A DNA stretch of 64,000 nt, taken from sequence record MN850590.1; one strand, given 5' to 3'. Shown here piece after piece: positions 7,925 to 55,418 of this stretch. The notes beneath the pieces are model-generated. The model saw only the letters and a list, made by a program, of their open reading frames with translations. It searched no databases and was not told where the DNA came from. The position numbers and the translations under genes are program-made. How positions within the stretch are numbered: the first letter of the stretch is position 1; each line of letters opens with the position of its first letter. The DNA is from Escherichia phage moha.

Positions 7925-8285
7925 GCCCTGGGCGTATGAATACAAGCGTAAATTAATCCCAAATGAAGTACTATTTGGCCCTATTTTAGCTTTAGCATTT
8001 TTAATCTTTATGATTATAGGAGCTGTTTTAGATTCTAGTGAAGTTATATCGTCTGATGCAGTGTTTTTACTTATTATAGCCGGGTCGTTTATTGTGCCAT
8101 TTTTATTAATGCCTATTAACTGGGTGGGATATTGGTACCAAGGACGTCATTATAGAGCTCGAGTACGCGAATGGAAAATTCAATGTGCAAAAGCTCAAGC
8201 TCAGTATGATGAAGCTGTTAAAAAGTATGAATATGAAGAAGCTATGGAATTCGTTAAGGAAATAAGATGCAAAAGCCTGAACTGA
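7893..8285 (+). CDS. membrane protein
   Basis: 130 aa; two predicted TM helices; start 7893 or 7914 uncertain. Confidence 0.65.
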   Translation: MSKPTLYMPSKPWAYEYKRKLIPNEVLFGPILALAFLIFMIIGAVLDSSEVISSDAVFLLIIAGSFIVPFLLMPINWVGYWYQGRHYRARVREWKIQCAKAQAQYDEAVKKYEYEEAMEFVKEIRCKSLN

Positions 8286-8383
8286 ATTTATGCTGTTTAC
8301 GCTTCTCAAATGATTAGTTATAATGAACTCCTAGCTAGACGTGAAAATGAAACAATCGAAAACTTTATTAAGGAATGTAGAAA

Positions 8384-8689
8384 ATGAGTAAGATTATTGA
8401 AATTAAAGTACCAGAGTTTAATGATGCCAAATCCGCTTCAGATGCAATTTATAAACTTCTGAATCAAGCTGAACGTATCGAAGAAGAAGCAACAAAGATC
8501 GCAGACCAATATGCCGTATCATTTTCTGTAGGTGATTATGGTAGCGGTCGTACTTATTATCCTAAGGGTGAAATCGTATCCCAGTGGATGAAAAATGAAA
8601 TTGAAAATAACGGTGGCGATGTTAAGCGTGAAGGTAATGGTTACATTATTACTGAAGGTGCTTGGGTTTCGTCTTCTGCGTTGTGTTAA
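8384..8689 (+). CDS. small protein, paralog family with C-terminal GWVSSS..C
   Basis: 101 aa ending GAWVSSSALC. Confidence 0.75.
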   Translation: MSKIIEIKVPEFNDAKSASDAIYKLLNQAERIEEEATKIADQYAVSFSVGDYGSGRTYYPKGEIVSQWMKNEIENNGGDVKREGNGYIITEGAWVSSSALC

Positions 8690-8698
8690 GGAATCATT

Positions 8699-8971
8699 AT
8701 GTCTAAAGAACAAACCGAACTGGCTGAAGCTGTAGCAAAAATCTATGCAGCTATTGAGGCTGCCAAAGAAATTGCTGATAAACAAAACACAACATTCAAC
8801 TTGTACCCAGCTTATGGTATGGGTGGAACCTATCATTCACCCGGACATCTTAAAGCCGATCTTGAACGTTGTACAAAAAACGGCTATGCTGAATGGGCTG
8901 ACGTTTACCAATACGACTACAACCTGAGCCTCGAAACTGGTGGTTGGGTCGCATCTTCTCACACTTGCTAA
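8699..8971 (+). CDS. small protein, paralog family with C-terminal GWVSSS..C
   Basis: 90 aa ending GGWVASSHTC. Confidence 0.75.
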   Translation: MSKEQTELAEAVAKIYAAIEAAKEIADKQNTTFNLYPAYGMGGTYHSPGHLKADLERCTKNGYAEWADVYQYDYNLSLETGGWVASSHTC

Positions 8972-8980
8972 GGAAACAAT

Positions 8981-9178
8981 ATGTCTCGTGAATTAGATTG
9001 TGCTGTACGTACGGCAGTAGCTGCCCTGGAAAACCTGTTCCAAATTGCAACAGAAGAACGCGAAGAAGTTACATTATGGATTGAAGATAACGCAGGTCTG
9101 AATCTCCAGGACGCGATCTCATTATCCCACAATAGTATCACTGTTCAAGGCTGGGTATCATCTAGTTATTCTTGCTAA
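8981..9178 (+). CDS. small protein, paralog family with C-terminal GWVSSS..C
   Basis: 65 aa ending QGWVSSSYSC. Confidence 0.75.
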   Translation: MSRELDCAVRTAVAALENLFQIATEEREEVTLWIEDNAGLNLQDAISLSHNSITVQGWVSSSYSC

Positions 9179-9183
9179 AACAG

Positions 9184-9212
9184 TTTACAACAAGATAGGG
9201 CTATGTTATAGT
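9184..9212 (+). promoter_or_regulatory. early promoter cassette (PeSL-like)
   Basis: -35 TTTACA / 17 bp / -10 TATAGT; IR atagggct..agtcctat. Confidence 0.6.
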
Positions 9213-9240
9213 AGTCCTATCAAAACAAATGGAGTCCACA

Positions 9241-9480
9241 ATGATTTATTACGAAAGTATCGGAACCAAAGTGGTTGGTAAAACCATTACTCGTGAAAAG
9301 TTTGCAAAGATATTCGATATGCGTTATAAAAAATCTGAACACAAAGGCATCCGATTCGAAGATGCGCACTGTACAATTTGCCCTTATAATGAAGACATAA
9401 ACGGTACAATCGTTCCATTGGTAGAGGCTTCACATGATGACCTCTGGGATGAATATAATATCGCATGTCGTGAAATTTAA
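9241..9480 (+). CDS. hypothetical protein
   Basis: 79 aa from ATG 9241, SD ggag. Confidence 0.7.
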   Translation: MIYYESIGTKVVGKTITREKFAKIFDMRYKKSEHKGIRFEDAHCTICPYNEDINGTIVPLVEASHDDLWDEYNIACREI

Positions 9481-9508
9481 GTTAATGAATTAATCCGAGG
9501 AAAATATT

Positions 9509-49418: not shown

Positions 49419-50054
49419 ATGAAAACTACTCCTATTACTATCGCTATTGACGCAATCGTAAAACAAGCTTCTTCTTTGGCTACTATGGCCAAAGTAATTA
49501 GTCAAAACCCTGCTCGTTATAATGCTATTCTAGAAACTCTTCGACGCCCAGGACTTAGCAATTATGAAAGCCGAGTAATTATTACAGGTGTTGGTAAGAA
49601 TGCTAATATTGCAACTAAAGCTTCTGAGACATTTGCTTCACTCGGTATCCCAAGTATGTACTTGAACACCGGGCATTATTCTCACGGTGATGCAGGATTC
49701 ATTGCGCCTAATGATGTGTTGATTCATATTAGTCGTTCTGGTAAGACCGAAGAAATGATAGGTGTTGCTAAACATCTTCGTATGATTCGTCCGAACGTCA
49801 AACAGATTCTGTTGCATTGTAACCCAGACATTCCACAAGAAAATGAAGCCCTTTTTGATTACTCTTTCTGTACAGGCATCGCAGTAGAGGTTGACGAGAA
49901 CTCTTTAGCTCCGACTATGTCTACTACATTGTTGTTAGCGCTTATCGATACGTTTGCTATCAACCTTTCGTCTGAGCGTGGATTTACCTCTAATGACTTC
50001 CTTAAGTTCCACCCTGGTGGTGCACTAGGTGCCATGTTACGAGGCGAACAATGA
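49419..50054 (+). CDS. SIS-domain sugar-phosphate isomerase (KdsD/GutQ arabinose-5-phosphate isomerase-like)
   Basis: 211 aa; GVGKNANIATK...HGDAGF...ISRSGKTEE aligns with KdsD SIS core GMGKSGHIG..HGDLGM..ISNSGES. Confidence 0.8.
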   Translation: MKTTPITIAIDAIVKQASSLATMAKVISQNPARYNAILETLRRPGLSNYESRVIITGVGKNANIATKASETFASLGIPSMYLNTGHYSHGDAGFIAPNDVLIHISRSGKTEEMIGVAKHLRMIRPNVKQILLHCNPDIPQENEALFDYSFCTGIAVEVDENSLAPTMSTTLLLALIDTFAINLSSERGFTSNDFLKFHPGGALGAMLRGEQ

Positions 50055-50194
50055 AAGCAATAACAATAGGACTTTTACTATTGATGCTTGTCATGACTAT
50101 CTACTGGAGCTTAACAGCTCCAGTAATGATTCCAACACTTGTAATTGGATGGATTATGATTGGACTACAAGCAAAGTATGAATGCTTTAACTAG
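50051..50194 (+). CDS. possible 47-aa membrane peptide (not in ORF track)
   Basis: ATGA overlap with SIS gene stop; hydrophobic with IGWIMIG; sits where T4 imm lies. Confidence 0.4.
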   Translation: MKAITIGLLLLMLVMTIYWSLTAPVMIPTLVIGWIMIGLQAKYECFN

Positions 50195-50235
50195 AATAGT
50201 GTACAATACTCCTACTTACCAATGAGGACTTCAAC

Positions 50236-51921
50236 ATGAAAAAAGCTGTTATTCTTGGTGCTGGATTGGCAACTCGTTTATATCCAATAACGCATCATAT
50301 TCCTAAGGTGCTTGTTAACTATAAACAAGACACTATTCTGAGCAATTTGTATACAATTTATTCTGACCTTGGCGCAGATGAAATTATTGTAGTAGTTCAT
50401 TCAAAATTTGCTGAAACTGTTCGAGCTTATTGTGAGCAAGAAGGGTTCAATGTGACTATTCGTACAGTTGATGAAGCGTATGGATCTGCTTATGCTCTTG
50501 CTAAATTACACAAAGATTTAGACGGCCATAATGTAATTGTTAACTGGTGTGATATTATTCCTGATTTTGGTTCATGGTCTTGGAATGTTAACGCAATCTA
50601 TGTTAAAGGTGACGAATGTCGATATAATTTCGACGGTGAAAATATCACTAACGTAGGTTCAACAGGTGGTAATGTTGTAGGAATTTATCAGTTCAAAGAC
50701 TGGGAATTCTATATGGGTTCTACTGATGAAGAAATTCATGAATACTGCAAAGGACGTGATTTCGTAGAATTCCTTTACGCCAGCGCATTCAATAAATCAG
50801 AGCTTATGAATCTAATTGATTTAGGTGATATGCCTAAACTTGAAAAGGCTCATGAAGTTCGTGAACTTAATCGTAGTTTTAATGCAGTTGAAATTGGTGA
50901 AGAAACTGTAACTAAATTCGCATTGACCGAACAGGGTCGAGCTCTTCAGAAAGATGAGATTTCATGGTATCTTAAAGTGAAATCGGATTCAGTTCCTCAG
51001 TTAGTTTCTGTTAATGAAAATAACTTTGAAATGGAACGCATTAAAGGTAAGCCGGCATTTGAATATATTAAATCCAAATCAAGTCTTGCTCGTCCACAAA
51101 TTGTTGATGCAATTTTAGATGCACTGAAATTCAGCACAGACACTTATTTTGTAAGTCCTGAAACTGTTCGTCGTGATTTCACTAAAGAATTCTATACGAA
51201 AGTTATTGATCGTTGTGAAAGCATTCAACCATTGATTGATTCATTTGGTAAAATCACGCATGTGAACTACACTAAGATTGGACGTCTGAAGCCAATGCTG
51301 AAACAAGCTTTAGAACACCTTATTCGTTATCATAACCGTTCTCAGGGGCAGTACTCTGTTATTCACGGTGACCCGAACTTCAGTAATACTATGATTACTG
51401 ATAACGGCGAAGTCAAGTTTATCGACCCTCGTGGATATTTTGGCGAAACCAAGATTTACGGGCCAAAATTGTATGATGAAGCTAAAGTGCTTTATGCTGT
51501 TTCAGGTTATGATGAATTCAATGCTAATCCGACCTGGGGACAGTTTACTATTGATGAAACAACTTGTAATGTGACTATTAACATCAATCCATTAGTTTAC
51601 AAATATGGAAAGATGAGTTCGTTTAACGAGTATCATCATTTGGCAGTGGCAATTATCTGGATTGCATTAGGTGGTTATTTCAAGAATAATCCACTTAAAG
51701 CGGTAGCCGCATATTATAAAGGTATGGAACTTCTGACTAAGCAATTACGTAACATGGGCCGTGTACTTCAGGACGGCTCTATTAGTTATGACGTAGCAGA
51801 ACCTGTAACGGCTACTCTGATTACAAAAAATCCTGGTAAATGGGTACTAACTGATAAAGAAACTGGTGTTTCCTATCGTCCAATCGGTGGCGATATCACT
51901 CATCAATGGGAACGAATCTAA
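50236..51921 (+). CDS. bifunctional sugar-1-phosphate nucleotidyltransferase / APH-choline-kinase-like sugar kinase
   Basis: 561 aa; N-terminal ILGAGLATRL nucleotidyltransferase loop; C-terminal HGDPNFSN...FIDPRGYFG kinase catalytic/Mg motifs. Confidence 0.85.
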   Translation: MKKAVILGAGLATRLYPITHHIPKVLVNYKQDTILSNLYTIYSDLGADEIIVVVHSKFAETVRAYCEQEGFNVTIRTVDEAYGSAYALAKLHKDLDGHNVIVNWCDIIPDFGSWSWNVNAIYVKGDECRYNFDGENITNVGSTGGNVVGIYQFKDWEFYMGSTDEEIHEYCKGRDFVEFLYASAFNKSELMNLIDLGDMPKLEKAHEVRELNRSFNAVEIGEETVTKFALTEQGRALQKDEISWYLKVKSDSVPQLVSVNENNFEMERIKGKPAFEYIKSKSSLARPQIVDAILDALKFSTDTYFVSPETVRRDFTKEFYTKVIDRCESIQPLIDSFGKITHVNYTKIGRLKPMLKQALEHLIRYHNRSQGQYSVIHGDPNFSNTMITDNGEVKFIDPRGYFGETKIYGPKLYDEAKVLYAVSGYDEFNANPTWGQFTIDETTCNVTININPLVYKYGKMSSFNEYHHLAVAIIWIALGGYFKNNPLKAVAAYYKGMELLTKQLRNMGRVLQDGSISYDVAEPVTATLITKNPGKWVLTDKETGVSYRPIGGDITHQWERI

Positions 51922-52307
51922 TGCCCCGTGTAGAAAACATGCTTAATCTTTGTTTTGATGTCGATGATTGCATCACGGAATGGAATAACAATCGTGATTA
52001 CGTGAACTTCAAACCAGACGTCGAAATGGTGTCTGCCATTAATGCCCTGTATGATGCAGGGCATACCATAACGCTTTACACTGCTCGTGGTATGAAGTCA
52101 GTAGGTCCTGGTCGTATAGCAATTGACATTCTCCCAAGTCTGATTCAGAACTTGGAAAACATTGGTTTGAAGTACCATAATTTGCTAACACATAAACCAG
52201 TATATGATTGGATTATCGACGACAAAGCTATGCGTCCTGATGAATTCAAAGCTCTTATGAATAAAGGCGAATTCGAAACATTTAAATCATATAAACCAAA
52301 TCTATAA
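51921..52307 (+). CDS. HAD-superfamily phosphatase
   Basis: 128 aa from ATG 51921 (TAATG overlap); motif I FDVDDCIT, later TARG and IIDDK. Confidence 0.75.
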   Translation: MPRVENMLNLCFDVDDCITEWNNNRDYVNFKPDVEMVSAINALYDAGHTITLYTARGMKSVGPGRIAIDILPSLIQNLENIGLKYHNLLTHKPVYDWIIDDKAMRPDEFKALMNKGEFETFKSYKPNL

Positions 52308-52364: not shown

Positions 52365-53525
52365 ATGAATACTTTTAAAATCGGAACGAATTTTGATTTA
52401 GCTCTTCTTGATAAAATCGTAGAGCTCAATAAAACCTATCCTAATAGCTTGATAAACGAAGTATATGGCTCTACAAGAGAAATGGCTTTTGTAGCAGCCA
52501 GACCTGATTTTAGGCTTCCTGACGTTGACAAAAAGATGTTAGAAGACTACGTTAAACGTTGTAACGAATTAGGTATTTGCTTTAACTATACACTCAACAC
52601 GATAAATCCTGGTTCAAAAAGAGAACTAGTTGAGTGGAAGAAGAAAGCTATTCAGGATTATGTTCAGTATCTTTGGTCAATAGGCGTATGGCGTATTACT
52701 ATCGCTAACCCTGTTGTTATGGAAATTGTTCGTGAAGTCAATAAAGATATTGAGATTGAAGTTTCAACAATTCTACATGTCGATGCTGTAACTCAAATAA
52801 AATACTTGCATGACCAATATAACATCAAAAAGGTCTGTTGCGGAATTCATAAGAACCGTTCAGTTTCTTTCCTGAAGCGTGCAGCAGAGTTTTGCAATAA
52901 GAACAATATAATATTTGAAGTTCTTGTAAATGAGTTCTGTTCTAATGCTGGTAAAGGGTATACAACACATTGTAGCTATCGTGACTCTTGCTATATTTTC
53001 CATAGTACTGATGTTACCGCTGATGATGCTAAATCCTTAAATGGATATCCAATGCAACACTGCATTAAAGCTCGTGATACAGACCCATTTAACTGGCTGA
53101 GAACTCGTTTTGTTCGTCCTCAAGATTTGAAACTTTATAATGATATTGGTATCACTCAATTCAAAGTTTCAGGACGTACAGGTAGCACAGACTACATTTT
53201 GAAAGTTCTTGAAGCATACGCTTCTGAAAAGTTTGAAGGTAATTTGTTAGAACTGTGGAAGCCTTTAGAGACTATTTTCACTCTTGAAAACGAAACTGAG
53301 TTTTCACATACAGTAAATATTGAAACCTCTTTGTTAGATGGCTTTTTAGAAAAAAGGTGGTTCAGACATCCAGATTTCGATTGTGCTAATGAAATCTGCG
53401 GGACGACGTGTACATATTGTGAAAGATATTATAAACGTCAATTATCTAAAAACGGGTTAGCAGAAAACTCTATATCTATTATTGATATAACTAACTCTGA
53501 TGACGCTTTGAGGTACCCGGAATGA
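52365..53525 (+). CDS. hypothetical protein with C-terminal Cys cluster
   Basis: 386 aa; CANEICGTTCTYC (C-x3-C-x3-C-x2-C) near C-terminus; no confident fold. Confidence 0.85.
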   Translation: MNTFKIGTNFDLALLDKIVELNKTYPNSLINEVYGSTREMAFVAARPDFRLPDVDKKMLEDYVKRCNELGICFNYTLNTINPGSKRELVEWKKKAIQDYVQYLWSIGVWRITIANPVVMEIVREVNKDIEIEVSTILHVDAVTQIKYLHDQYNIKKVCCGIHKNRSVSFLKRAAEFCNKNNIIFEVLVNEFCSNAGKGYTTHCSYRDSCYIFHSTDVTADDAKSLNGYPMQHCIKARDTDPFNWLRTRFVRPQDLKLYNDIGITQFKVSGRTGSTDYILKVLEAYASEKFEGNLLELWKPLETIFTLENETEFSHTVNIETSLLDGFLEKRWFRHPDFDCANEICGTTCTYCERYYKRQLSKNGLAENSISIIDITNSDDALRYPE

Positions 53526-53761
53526 TTTCTAGAAAAACTTTTAACCACCAACTTAATGAAGAGATTTTGACTATGAAACTGAACACTAATGAACAAATTC
53601 TTAAAAAGGCCCTGATGGGCCTTTTTGAAACTAAAGCGGCTAAAGTGATTAAAGAACCTGTTCAATTAGAATACTACGCTGATGCATTTCTTCATAGTGT
53701 TCTTGGAAGTATCGATGCCGAAGCTTTACGTTATATCAATATTGCCAAGAAATTCAAATAA
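53522..53761 (+). CDS. hypothetical small protein (doubtful)
   Basis: 79 aa; contains terminator-like hairpin GGCCC-tgat-GGGCC TTTTT at 53606-53624. Confidence 0.45.
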   Translation: MISRKTFNHQLNEEILTMKLNTNEQILKKALMGLFETKAAKVIKEPVQLEYYADAFLHSVLGSIDAEALRYINIAKKFK

Positions 53762-53802: not shown

Positions 53803-54519
53803 ATGGGAAAACATAACACAATGAAATATATCAAAGCCGCAGATTTTCAAACCGCATTTAAAGCAGTCAATCGTGAAATTTTAGAAAACCCGGAATTCGT
53901 AACTGATTCTCGTATTGGACGTTGTAATGAAATTGGGTCTATGACAGTAGTTGTTGACACTCCATCATCATTCAAAATGACCGACCCACGTATTAACCGC
54001 ATCTCTTATGAATATGCCGAAGACTTCTGGAAGTTTATGATTTCTGGTGGTACCAACGCAGAAGAAGCGTTTAAGGCATATCCTAATGTCGCTAAATTTA
54101 TTTCTAAACCAAAATCAGATGTTTTGCCGGCGAACTTCAACACTTTCTATGGTCCTCGCATTGCGGCTCAATTACCAGCTCTTCTAAAAGAACTTAAAGA
54201 GAAGCCTAACTCTCGAAGAGTTGTGTTCCAAATTCTAGAAAGTTCTGATCAGGCTTTGCTTGATTCGGACGAAACGCTTGAATATCCATGTACTGACTCA
54301 GTGACTTATTATATTCGTGATGGTAAGCTTTATACCCACTGTCATATGCGTTCTCAGAACTGTGCTGTTGTTATGCAGTTGGATTTTTATCTCCAAGGAA
54401 AATTACTTCATTATATCGCTAACGAATGTGGTGTAGAAGTTGGTGATTATACTCATACCATGGTAAGTGCCCATGTGTTTGAACGTGATTTTGATTATGT
54501 TAAAGGATTCCTTGACTAA
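53803..54519 (+). CDS. 42: thymidylate-synthase-fold pyrimidine hydroxymethylase (gp42-like dCMP hydroxymethylase, divergent)
   Basis: 238 aa; NSRR...YPCTDSVTYYIRD...MRSQN pattern parallels T4 gp42 DSRR...MCTNTVQYLIRD...MRSND. Confidence 0.7.
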   Translation: MGKHNTMKYIKAADFQTAFKAVNREILENPEFVTDSRIGRCNEIGSMTVVVDTPSSFKMTDPRINRISYEYAEDFWKFMISGGTNAEEAFKAYPNVAKFISKPKSDVLPANFNTFYGPRIAAQLPALLKELKEKPNSRRVVFQILESSDQALLDSDETLEYPCTDSVTYYIRDGKLYTHCHMRSQNCAVVMQLDFYLQGKLLHYIANECGVEVGDYTHTMVSAHVFERDFDYVKGFLD

Positions 54520-55418
54520 TGGCTATTTTCCGCGTACCTATCTTGAGTATGCGGTCTTATGAAACTGGACAGTATGCTATCCTTAAGGATGGCAACTTCC
54601 AACTTCATTTGCACCGTGCTAATCCAGGTGATGTGATTACATATCCACGTAATGCATCTGATATTAAAGAATGTGAACGTCTTTTCCCAGAATTTAAGTT
54701 TGTTCCATTATGGTATAAAGATAACGCGTATAACACTCGTAAATATTTCTGGTCTGAAAATGAATTTGTGGTTGATTCATTAATTGCTTATTATGATTGT
54801 GATTTTCTAATCACAGATATCACTGGATATGATGGTGCTTTTGATGTAGAATTCAATTTCAATATCACTGCAGACCCTAATAAACCACGTTTTTATATTG
54901 ACGAATTCTTAAAAACTGATATGTTGTCGGTTAATCGTTCACTTCAAACTACTGTGTTGAATGAACGTCAAAAAGAAGTGCTGGTTAACGCAGGTGCAAA
55001 TGGTAATAAGATTATCGTAACGCAGAAAGTTATACGTCCTTCCATCATGCAGCGTCTTGTAGGTGATTTGGCTCCTATTCATCTAGATGGTATTTTTCAT
55101 CCATTTCGAATTAGTGACCCATGCTATCGTTTTGAACAAGTGGTTGAATGTGCAATTCAATTAGGTCAACCGCTTTATATAACCGATCCAAATAATAGCT
55201 TCGACAGAAATAAGTATCCTGAAGAAGCGTTGATTCGAATTTTTAAACCAACTAAAACTGAGTACTATCAAATTCTTAAAGGACGTCCGAAGATTCAATA
55301 TTTCGAAAATCCTGAAGAAGTATTCCATCCAGGTCTTGGTGAGTTCATCTACTTTAATGCTTTAATTTCTTCGCCGTATAATATACCTAAATACGAAGAT
55401 GTCGTAATCGAGGAATAA
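54519..55418 (+). CDS. hypothetical protein at beta-glucosyltransferase position (candidate transferase)
   Basis: 299 aa; TAATG overlap with upstream gene; no motif recognised. Confidence 0.8.
   Translation: MAIFRVPILSMRSYETGQYAILKDGNFQLHLHRANPGDVITYPRNASDIKECERLFPEFKFVPLWYKDNAYNTRKYFWSENEFVVDSLIAYYDCDFLITDITGYDGAFDVEFNFNITADPNKPRFYIDEFLKTDMLSVNRSLQTTVLNERQKEVLVNAGANGNKIIVTQKVIRPSIMQRLVGDLAPIHLDGIFHPFRISDPCYRFEQVVECAIQLGQPLYITDPNNSFDRNKYPEEALIRIFKPTKTEYYQILKGRPKIQYFENPEEVFHPGLGEFIYFNALISSPYNIPKYEDVVIEE

Follow-up and report, generated by a model that had tools for sequence, protein, structure and literature searches.

We analysed a window of 64,000 nucleotides (nt) from Escherichia phage moha (sequence record MN850590.1; "the window" denotes this whole stretch), with emphasis on one open reading frame (ORF) of 561 amino acids (aa), here called the fusion, in which a sugar-1-phosphate nucleotidyltransferase is followed by a protein-kinase-like small-molecule kinase. 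The frame runs uninterrupted on the + strand from the ATG at 50236 to the TAA at 51919-51921, with a Shine-Dalgarno sequence, GAGGA, at 50224-50228, 5' of the ATG; the opposite strand of 50236-51921 is closed by many stops. The ORF and its parts are as follows:

50236..51921 (stop codon included), + strand: bifunctional enzyme ORF, 561 aa, orthologue of RB69 ORF53_52c / gp52:53 and, by analogy, homologue of HY126 AfhE
50236..50850, + strand: N-terminal sugar-1-phosphate nucleotidyltransferase domain, about residues 1-205, with the G-x-G-x-x-R...PK loop (residues 8-24), WCD106IIP and D195-x-G-D198-x-x-K201
50851..51756, + strand: protein-kinase-like (choline kinase / APH fold) domain, about residues 206-507, with K227, E241, the catalytic loop H377-G-D379-x4-N384 and D397 (the predicted metal-binding Asp of 'IDPRG')
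51757..51918, + strand: C-terminal tail of about 55 aa, residues 508-561 (alignment columns 1067-1126), modelled with a predicted local distance difference test (pLDDT) of 82-92

A sequence-only reading of this DNA had described the ORF as a sugar-1-phosphate nucleotidyltransferase joined in a single polypeptide to a kinase of the APH/choline-kinase fold, and this description was borne out by Pfam, by motifs, by an AlphaFold2 model and by structural matches. The three motifs it quoted are indeed present: GAGLATRL at residues 8-15 (nt 50257-50280), HGDPNFSN at residues 377-384 (nt 51364-51387) and DPRGYFG at residues 397-403 (nt 51424-51444). The nucleotide-binding loop, of the form G-x-G-x-R-L...P-K, reads L7-GAGLATRLYPITHHIPK-24. 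At the N-terminus, Pfam NTP_transferase (PF00483) matched with an E-value of 8e-10 and 39.1 bits against a gathering cut-off of 21.2, the alignment covering just profile positions 1-101 of 245. The Pfam scores of kinase families were below their cut-offs (APH, 14.4 vs 23.2; Fructosamine kinase, 17.1 vs 22.4; EcKL, 16.2 vs 22), and these sub-threshold matches (fructosamine kinase, EcKL, RIO1 and APH) cluster at about residues 308-409. Thus, the kinase half falls short of membership by Pfam thresholds, but is recognised by its motifs and fold; precomputed PF01636 matches are present in some distant homologues. NCBIfam returned weak nucleotidyltransferase matches alone, all well under the equivalog cut-offs, and neither the Pfam nor the NCBIfam scan gave a match to PfkB, GHMP or CTP_transf_like in the fusion. 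The PHROG profile phrog_4098 matched end to end (residues 1-561 against profile positions 1-559 of 559, E 3e-295), and 310 homologues were found at E ≤ 1e-5. The profile and motif matches of the fusion are far beyond chance.

Conservation was mapped over 87 homologues that are 28-75% identical to the fusion. D106, D195, D198 and K201 are invariant in the transferase half, as are K227, E241, G378, D379, N384, D397, R399 and G400 in the kinase half, and G10, R14, K24 and H377 are conserved in at least 90% of the homologues. Judging from position and general knowledge of the folds, the conserved residues would correspond to the loop for the nucleoside triphosphate (NTP), the acidic metal ligands, the Lys-Glu pair for adenosine triphosphate (ATP), the HxDxxxxN catalytic loop and the metal-binding Asp. 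For example, D106 (in WCDIIP) and D195 and D198 (in DxGDxxK) were matched to the metal ligands of RmlA by position alone; the AlphaFold2 model places K227 in a beta-strand and E241 in the next helix. Because the catalytic motif residues are intact and conserved, both halves look catalytically active.

The AlphaFold2 model was built from the 87-sequence alignment, a single-sequence run having reached a pLDDT of 33.7 and been discarded. It attained a pLDDT of 94.7 and a predicted template modelling score (pTM) of 0.91, with both domains in the folds anticipated by the sequence-only reading. In the model, the N-terminal alpha/beta fold superposes on solved sugar-1-phosphate nucleotidyltransferases and the predicted C-terminal bilobal kinase fold on solved protein-kinase-like small-molecule kinases; the best 50 Foldseek matches showed only a single one of these two fold families. 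The two domains are predicted to form one rigid body (pTM 0.91), and the model contains no flexible linker. No solved structure of the family was found in the PDB by phmmer and profile searches. The best PDB match of the whole-family sequence profile was HddC, a heptose-1-phosphate guanylyltransferase (E 1e-14), while the profile of the kinase half gave marginal matches in the catalytic loop alone (E ≥ 0.03). Given that the profile finds only such marginal matches, the kinase domain is a divergent member of the protein-kinase-like fold. According to the alignment, tail residues 508-561 occur in the long homologues (about 550-570 aa), including all named T4-like phage proteins, and are lacking in shorter distant homologues and in the four-domain fusions described below.

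The window comes from a Mosigvirus, an RB69-like T-even phage of the Tevenvirinae. Full-length identity of the 4.6-kb stretch around the fusion to many genomes of this group is 97.7-97.9%, and the fusion itself shares 98.0% nucleotide identity with RB69 ORF053c plus ORF052c. The RB69 record (NC_004928) has one extra base after gene position 654; with this base removed, 558 of the 561 residues are identical (99.5%), and none of the three substitutions (H92Y, A182G and Q233H, window residue first) lies within a conserved motif. Re-sequencing by Thomas et al. 2018 identified the extra base as an error and showed that the region encodes one protein of 561 residues, ORF53_52c, which was put forward at that time as a candidate for the generation of uridine diphosphate (UDP)-arabinose (PMC6024577). 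In the window, each of the two genes that the RB69 reference record shows as split (ORF046/047 and ORF052/053) is one intact ORF, which supports the published interpretation of these splits as sequencing errors. The RB69 protein has the same length, domain order, flanking genes and phage genus as the fusion. Moreover, the 'nucleotidyltransferase' of vB_Eco_F27 is 100% identical to the fusion, and the AlbertHofmann phage protein named 'putative enzyme involved in UDP-arabinose biosynthesis' is 99.5% identical.

AfhE of phage HY126 is stated to be analogous to RB69 gp52:53 (PMC13326640), and the fusion would be linked to AfhE through this statement of analogy. The enzyme family is already published, and the window protein is another near-identical orthologue. 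The sequence-only reading had left the substrate unnamed, which is out of date: besides the 2018 proposal for RB69 ORF53_52c, activities of AfhE have been reported in more recent work (PMC13326640). Other database names did not hold. The 'GlmU' annotation, which this gene frequently bears in GenBank, is wrong, as the left-handed beta-helix acetyltransferase domain is missing, the C-terminal half is a kinase and the score is 22 bits against cut-offs of 367-505; the likeness to GlmU lies in the pyrophosphorylase fold that both have at the N-terminus (weak NCBIfam matches). The annotation 'mannose-1-P guanylyltransferase' was likewise rejected for the fusion.

The fusion gene belongs to a conserved cluster for arabinosyl-5-hydroxycytosine DNA modification. 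Its neighbours in the window are listed here:

49419..50054, + strand: SIS-domain D-arabinose-5-phosphate isomerase, RB69 gp55 orthologue (Pfam SIS E 2e-10; NCBIfam KpsF/GutQ 5e-32, KdsD 2e-30; phrog_5670)
50051..50194, + strand: conserved hydrophobic ORF of 47 aa, its start overlapping the isomerase stop (ATGA); phrog_3610, E 7e-27; a transmembrane hypothetical protein in related phages
51921..52307, + strand: HAD-type phosphatase, 128 aa, RB69 gp51 orthologue and AfhF analogue (TIGR01689 capsule biosynthesis phosphatase, E 1.6e-13; phrog_1238)
52365..53525, + strand: U32-family protein, 386 aa, RB69 gp50 orthologue (Pfam Peptidase_U32 E 7e-11; weak UbiU match)
53522..53761, + strand: ORF of 79 aa, overlapping the U32 stop, at the same position as chorismate mutase in Kanagawavirus and Winklervirus phages
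53803..54519, + strand: ThyA-homologue 5-hydroxy-2'-deoxycytidine monophosphate (5-hydroxy-dCMP) synthase, RB69 gp48 orthologue (Pfam Thymidylat_synt E 2e-15)
54519..55418, + strand: putative first DNA arabinosyltransferase, 299 aa, RB69 gp46:47 orthologue, a single intact ORF (phrog_3891 E 4e-156; PMC13326640)
55420..55968, + strand: thymidylate-kinase-like nucleotide kinase, 182 aa, RB69 gp45 orthologue (phrog_761 E 2e-45; PMC13326640 Table 1)

The TAA of the fusion overlaps the ATG of the HAD phosphatase gene (TAATG), and the latter is, from this overlap, predicted to be translationally coupled to the fusion. The names 'phosphoheptose isomerase', a frequent misannotation, and 'polynucleotide kinase' given to the HAD gene were rejected, since its match is to TIGR01689, a HAD family of capsule phosphatases. 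The genes of GADS24 run as follows: DNA polymerase gp43, arabinose-5-phosphate isomerase, a small ORF, 'NTP-transferase domain-containing protein', 'phosphoheptose isomerase', 'peptidase', a small ORF, 'thymidylate synthase', a hypothetical protein, 'thymidylate kinase' and UvsX. The fusion is also present in 57 Acinetobacter phage records, and in Acinetobacter phage Maestro the order is SIS, fusion, HAD, ThyA-like, glycosyltransferase, kinase, glycosyltransferase and glycosyltransferase.

RB69 DNA carries beta-D-Araf-(1,3)-alpha-D-Araf-5-hydroxy-2'-deoxycytidine (Araf, arabinofuranose) and not arabosyl-hydroxymethyl-C, as was first thought (Lee et al., NAR 2026, PMC13326640). In the same paper, 5-hydroxy-dCMP is made by RB69 gp48, the ThyA homologue; arabinosylation is reported to occur on DNA, with the glycosyltransferases of the cluster proposed as the enzymes; RB69 gp52:53 is modelled with an N-terminal domain resembling MurU and a C-terminal domain resembling APH/choline kinases; and the best AlphaFold-database match of the phosphatase is GmhB, heptose-1,7-bisphosphate phosphatase (PMC13326640). 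The text, citing He et al. 2026, reports AfhE to be a D-arabinose-5-phosphate (Ara5P) kinase and a UDP-D-arabinose pyrophosphorylase, and states that AfhF, a HAD protein, dephosphorylates Araf-1,5-bisphosphate (Araf-1,5-P2) to Araf-1-phosphate (Araf-1-P). Growth of phage Thanatos requires the orthologue TH1_060 (54% identity), for which xylose-1-phosphate is not a substrate (PMC12838424). A Mosigvirus paper of June 2026 still terms the pathway uncharacterised.

The domain folds, the intact invariant motifs, the orthology with RB69 gp52:53 and the conserved neighbourhood are the basis on which we consider the fusion to be, very probably, the bifunctional enzyme of a phage UDP-D-arabinofuranose pathway that feeds 5-hydroxycytosine arabinosylation in the DNA of RB69-like phages. 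We infer for the window orthologue the same activities as for AfhE, together with the roles of individual residues. In the proposed mechanism, the SIS isomerase would convert host ribulose-5-phosphate to Ara5P, thereby supplying the substrate of the kinase, and the 5-phosphate would fix the ring as a furanose (step 1). The C-terminal kinase domain would then use ATP to phosphorylate the anomeric C1 hydroxyl, turning Ara5P into Araf-1,5-P2 (step 2), with D379 as the likely catalytic base, N384 and D397 as Mg2+ ligands, and the K227-E241 pair holding the ATP phosphates. The small HAD phosphatase encoded by the overlapping next gene would strip the 5-phosphate to leave Araf-1-P (step 3), from which the N-terminal nucleotidyltransferase domain would form UDP-Araf and pyrophosphate with uridine triphosphate (step 4); here the G8-x-G-x-x-x-R14 / K24 loop would bind the NTP, and D106 and D198 Mg2+. 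Finally, the GT-B glycosyltransferases of the cluster would move the arabinose onto 5-hydroxycytosine in DNA (step 5).

Of the three reactions that lead from Ara5P to UDP-Araf, the fusion would probably catalyse the first and the third, which are not adjacent because a separate phosphatase acts between them. This bears on the suggestion of the sequence-only reading that a free sugar could be converted to a nucleoside diphosphate (NDP)-sugar in two consecutive steps: the production of an NDP-sugar stands, but the free sugar and the consecutive steps are probably wrong, as the reported route passes through Ara5P, the bisphosphate and a separate HAD phosphatase.

Several points weigh against the pathway as we propose it. 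The best PDB sequence matches are an enzyme of guanosine diphosphate (GDP)-heptose synthesis, HddC, and one of cytidine diphosphate (CDP)-choline synthesis, LicC, nucleotide specificity being a property that is not readable from sequence. The nearest structural relatives of the kinase domain act on choline, glucosamine, maltose, methylthioribose and aminoglycosides, all of them non-phosphorylated substrates. Moreover, Table 1 of PMC13326640 lists the phosphatase as yielding free arabinose, which the kinase then converts to Araf-1-P. The latter two points favour a different order of events, in which the HAD phosphatase frees D-arabinose, the kinase phosphorylates C1 and the nucleotidyltransferase follows directly, so that the fused steps would be consecutive as in AmgK/MurU and LicA/LicC; MurU and LicC, each acting after such a kinase, are among the closest relatives of the nucleotidyltransferase domain. 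We nevertheless regard this free-sugar order, to which the sequence-only reading corresponds, as unlikely. From a chemical point of view, the easiest way to a furanosyl nucleotide is for the anomeric kinase to act as long as a 5-phosphate keeps the ring in the furanose form. Only the 5-phosphorylated sugar is locked as a furanose, the form present in DNA, and this favours a kinase that acts on Ara5P. Free D-arabinose is, by contrast, overwhelmingly pyranose in solution, as known from general carbohydrate chemistry, whereas the sugar on the DNA is a furanose (PMC13326640). In addition, the layout of isomerase, kinase, phosphatase and transferase mirrors NDP-heptose synthesis, where the kinase takes a sugar phosphate, and GmhB is the best match of the phosphatase. 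The running text of PMC13326640, citing the AfhE/AfhF biochemistry, also gives the order Ara5P, Araf-1,5-P2, Araf-1-P.

The GDP- and CDP-products formed by the best PDB sequence matches are also relevant to another possibility, namely that the fusion activates another sugar or uses another nucleotide (CDP, GDP or deoxythymidine diphosphate), or that it does not activate sugars at all and is instead a glycosyltransferase acting on DNA, with a phosphotransferase as accessory domain. For the latter, a match to the glycosyltransferase-A superfamily of CDD was noted for RB69 ORF053c (PMC6024577), and the Thanatos authors retain TH1_060 as a glycosyltransferase candidate because their in vitro assays showed no activity (PMC12838424). 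However, their negative assay used xylose-1-phosphate, a pyranose of the wrong configuration, and AfhE is reported to be a UDP-D-arabinose pyrophosphorylase (PMC13326640). The cluster already has GT-B glycosyltransferases, which are proposed as the transferases for arabinosylation on DNA (PMC13326640). Given the nucleotidyltransferase signature and these separate GT-B enzymes, we judge a glycosyltransferase role, or a role with another sugar or nucleotide, to be most improbable, and we retain the fusion as the Ara5P kinase and UDP-Araf pyrophosphorylase of the pathway.

Within that pathway, the fusion of the first and third reactions, the rigid body of the predicted model and the coupled phosphatase gene raise the idea that the kinase, the phosphatase and the nucleotidyltransferase form an obligate channelling complex, in which the tail (508-561) could be a dock for the phosphatase or for the T4-type complex of deoxynucleoside triphosphate synthesis and replication. 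This idea is unlikely; if true, it would represent a new enzyme organisation and not a new enzyme.

Like Acinetobacter phage Maestro, a metagenomic contig of 350 kb from a T4-like (jumbo) phage shares the core gene order of the cluster; it carries, at L006 5135-10997, the genes SIS, GT2, fusion (36% identical), HAD (Hydrolase_3 type) and ThyA. The HAD and ThyA genes of this contig have no U32 gene between them, and a flavodoxin-like protein, a UDG-like protein and NAD salvage genes are encoded nearby. In distant homologues, four domains are joined in one protein of about 890-955 aa in the order HAD, SIS, nucleotidyltransferase and kinase, and such four-domain (Rosetta-stone) proteins indicate that the four activities constitute one pathway. 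Four-domain fusions lie at L002 8001-10781 (also in L003 and L004) and at 8001-10679 in both L008 and L009, on contigs with giant-virus hallmark genes: MutS+HNH, RNA polymerase Rpb2 and Rpb10, which are neighbours of the fusions, as well as dUTPase and sugar epimerases or GT2. A eukaryotic transcriptome set yielded one homologue. These findings suggest that giant viruses have a pathway of pentose activation carried by a single polypeptide, which may serve glycan synthesis.

We also scanned the window for promoters, using a pattern which we take to be the T4 middle-promoter consensus (a MotA box, 11-13 bp and TAnnnT), with the expectation derived from shuffles. On the coding strand of the window, five matches were observed against 0.36 expected:

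50181..50207, + strand: T4 middle-promoter pattern match, with MotA box AATGCTTTA, a 12-bp spacer and TACAAT, 29 nt 5' of the fusion ATG
4028, 39977, 42670 and 55356, + strand: other middle-promoter pattern matches, the one at 55356 being upstream of the nucleotide-kinase gene

A middle promoter is predicted as likely directly upstream of the fusion gene. A scan of the cluster for sigma-70 promoters and terminators gave counts at or below the shuffle expectation and was uninformative.

The U32 gene of the cluster deserves a separate comment. Its product has been called a 'sugar or heterocycle reductase' (PMC13326640), and cellular U32 proteins are tied to O2-independent, prephenate-dependent hydroxylation, as for RlhA (5-hydroxycytidine of 23S rRNA), TrhP (ho5U of tRNA) and UbiU/V (ubiquinone synthesis) (PMC5727448, PMC6599085, PMC10990095). 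The reported ThyA-type hydroxylase uses flavin and O2 (PMC13326640). By analogy with the cellular proteins, we hypothesize that the phage U32 protein may make 5-hydroxycytosine without O2 and from prephenate when the host grows anaerobically, and so complement the flavin- and O2-dependent ThyA homologue; no mention of an O2-independent U32 route to phage 5-hydroxycytosine was found in the papers searched. Among the 13 Cys of the window U32 protein are C192/C203/C209/C233 and a C-terminal cluster, C340-x4-C345-x3-C349-x2-C352. Phage U32 genes show at least 82% identity over 221 phage records, and all the genera named among the matches listed are those of Enterobacterales and Shewanella; Acinetobacter is not among them, and the cluster of its phage Maestro lacks the gene.

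Between U32 and the ThyA homologue, Klebsiella phage KLB31 and Erwinia phage Virsaitis27 have a small gene for a chorismate mutase (Pfam CM_2, E 1e-9 and 2e-11), and U32-chorismate mutase loci of related phages were recorded at L010 4483-5894 and L011 4492-6002. The 79-aa ORF of the window has no CM_2 match, and its identity to the chorismate mutases of related phages (79 aa and 114 aa) is only 15-20%; from its sequence, it could be a chorismate mutase that has diverged extremely, or else a replacement unrelated to that enzyme.

From this enzyme, RB69-like phages obtain the activated D-arabinofuranose with which they decorate 5-hydroxycytosine. Many restriction enzymes are blocked by the arabinosyl modification, which also influences how sensitive a phage is to type IV restriction and other defences and is relevant to phage therapy and phage engineering. 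Since the enzyme was predicted in 2018 and its chemistry and biochemistry were published in 2025-2026, the finding itself adds only a near-identical orthologue. The further additions are modest: the residue-level conservation map, the module in the distant jumbo-phage contig, the four-domain fusion in giant-virus-like DNA and the U32 lead.

Among known systems, a close parallel to the pathway is NDP-heptose synthesis (GmhA, HldE or HddA, GmhB, HldE or HddC), in which a SIS isomerase, an anomeric kinase producing a bisphosphate, a HAD phosphatase and a nucleotidyltransferase also act, although on a heptose and not on the pentofuranose of the phage pathway. In HldE, a kinase and a nucleotidyltransferase are also fused and also catalyse the first and third of three steps. 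However, HldE pairs a kinase of the ribokinase (PfkB) fold with a cytidylyltransferase-like domain, whereas the fusion combines a protein-kinase/APH fold with an RmlA-like domain. As the folds differ, we reject homology to HldE and regard it as no more than a functional analogue. The N-terminal domain has its best sequence-profile match in HddC (E 1e-14); HddA is a GHMP kinase and differs in fold from the window kinase. Finally, AmgK/MurU in the recycling of N-acetylmuramic acid and LicA/LicC in phosphocholine metabolism are separate proteins that catalyse consecutive steps on unphosphorylated substrates, whereas the phage enzymes are fused, most likely with a phosphatase step in between.

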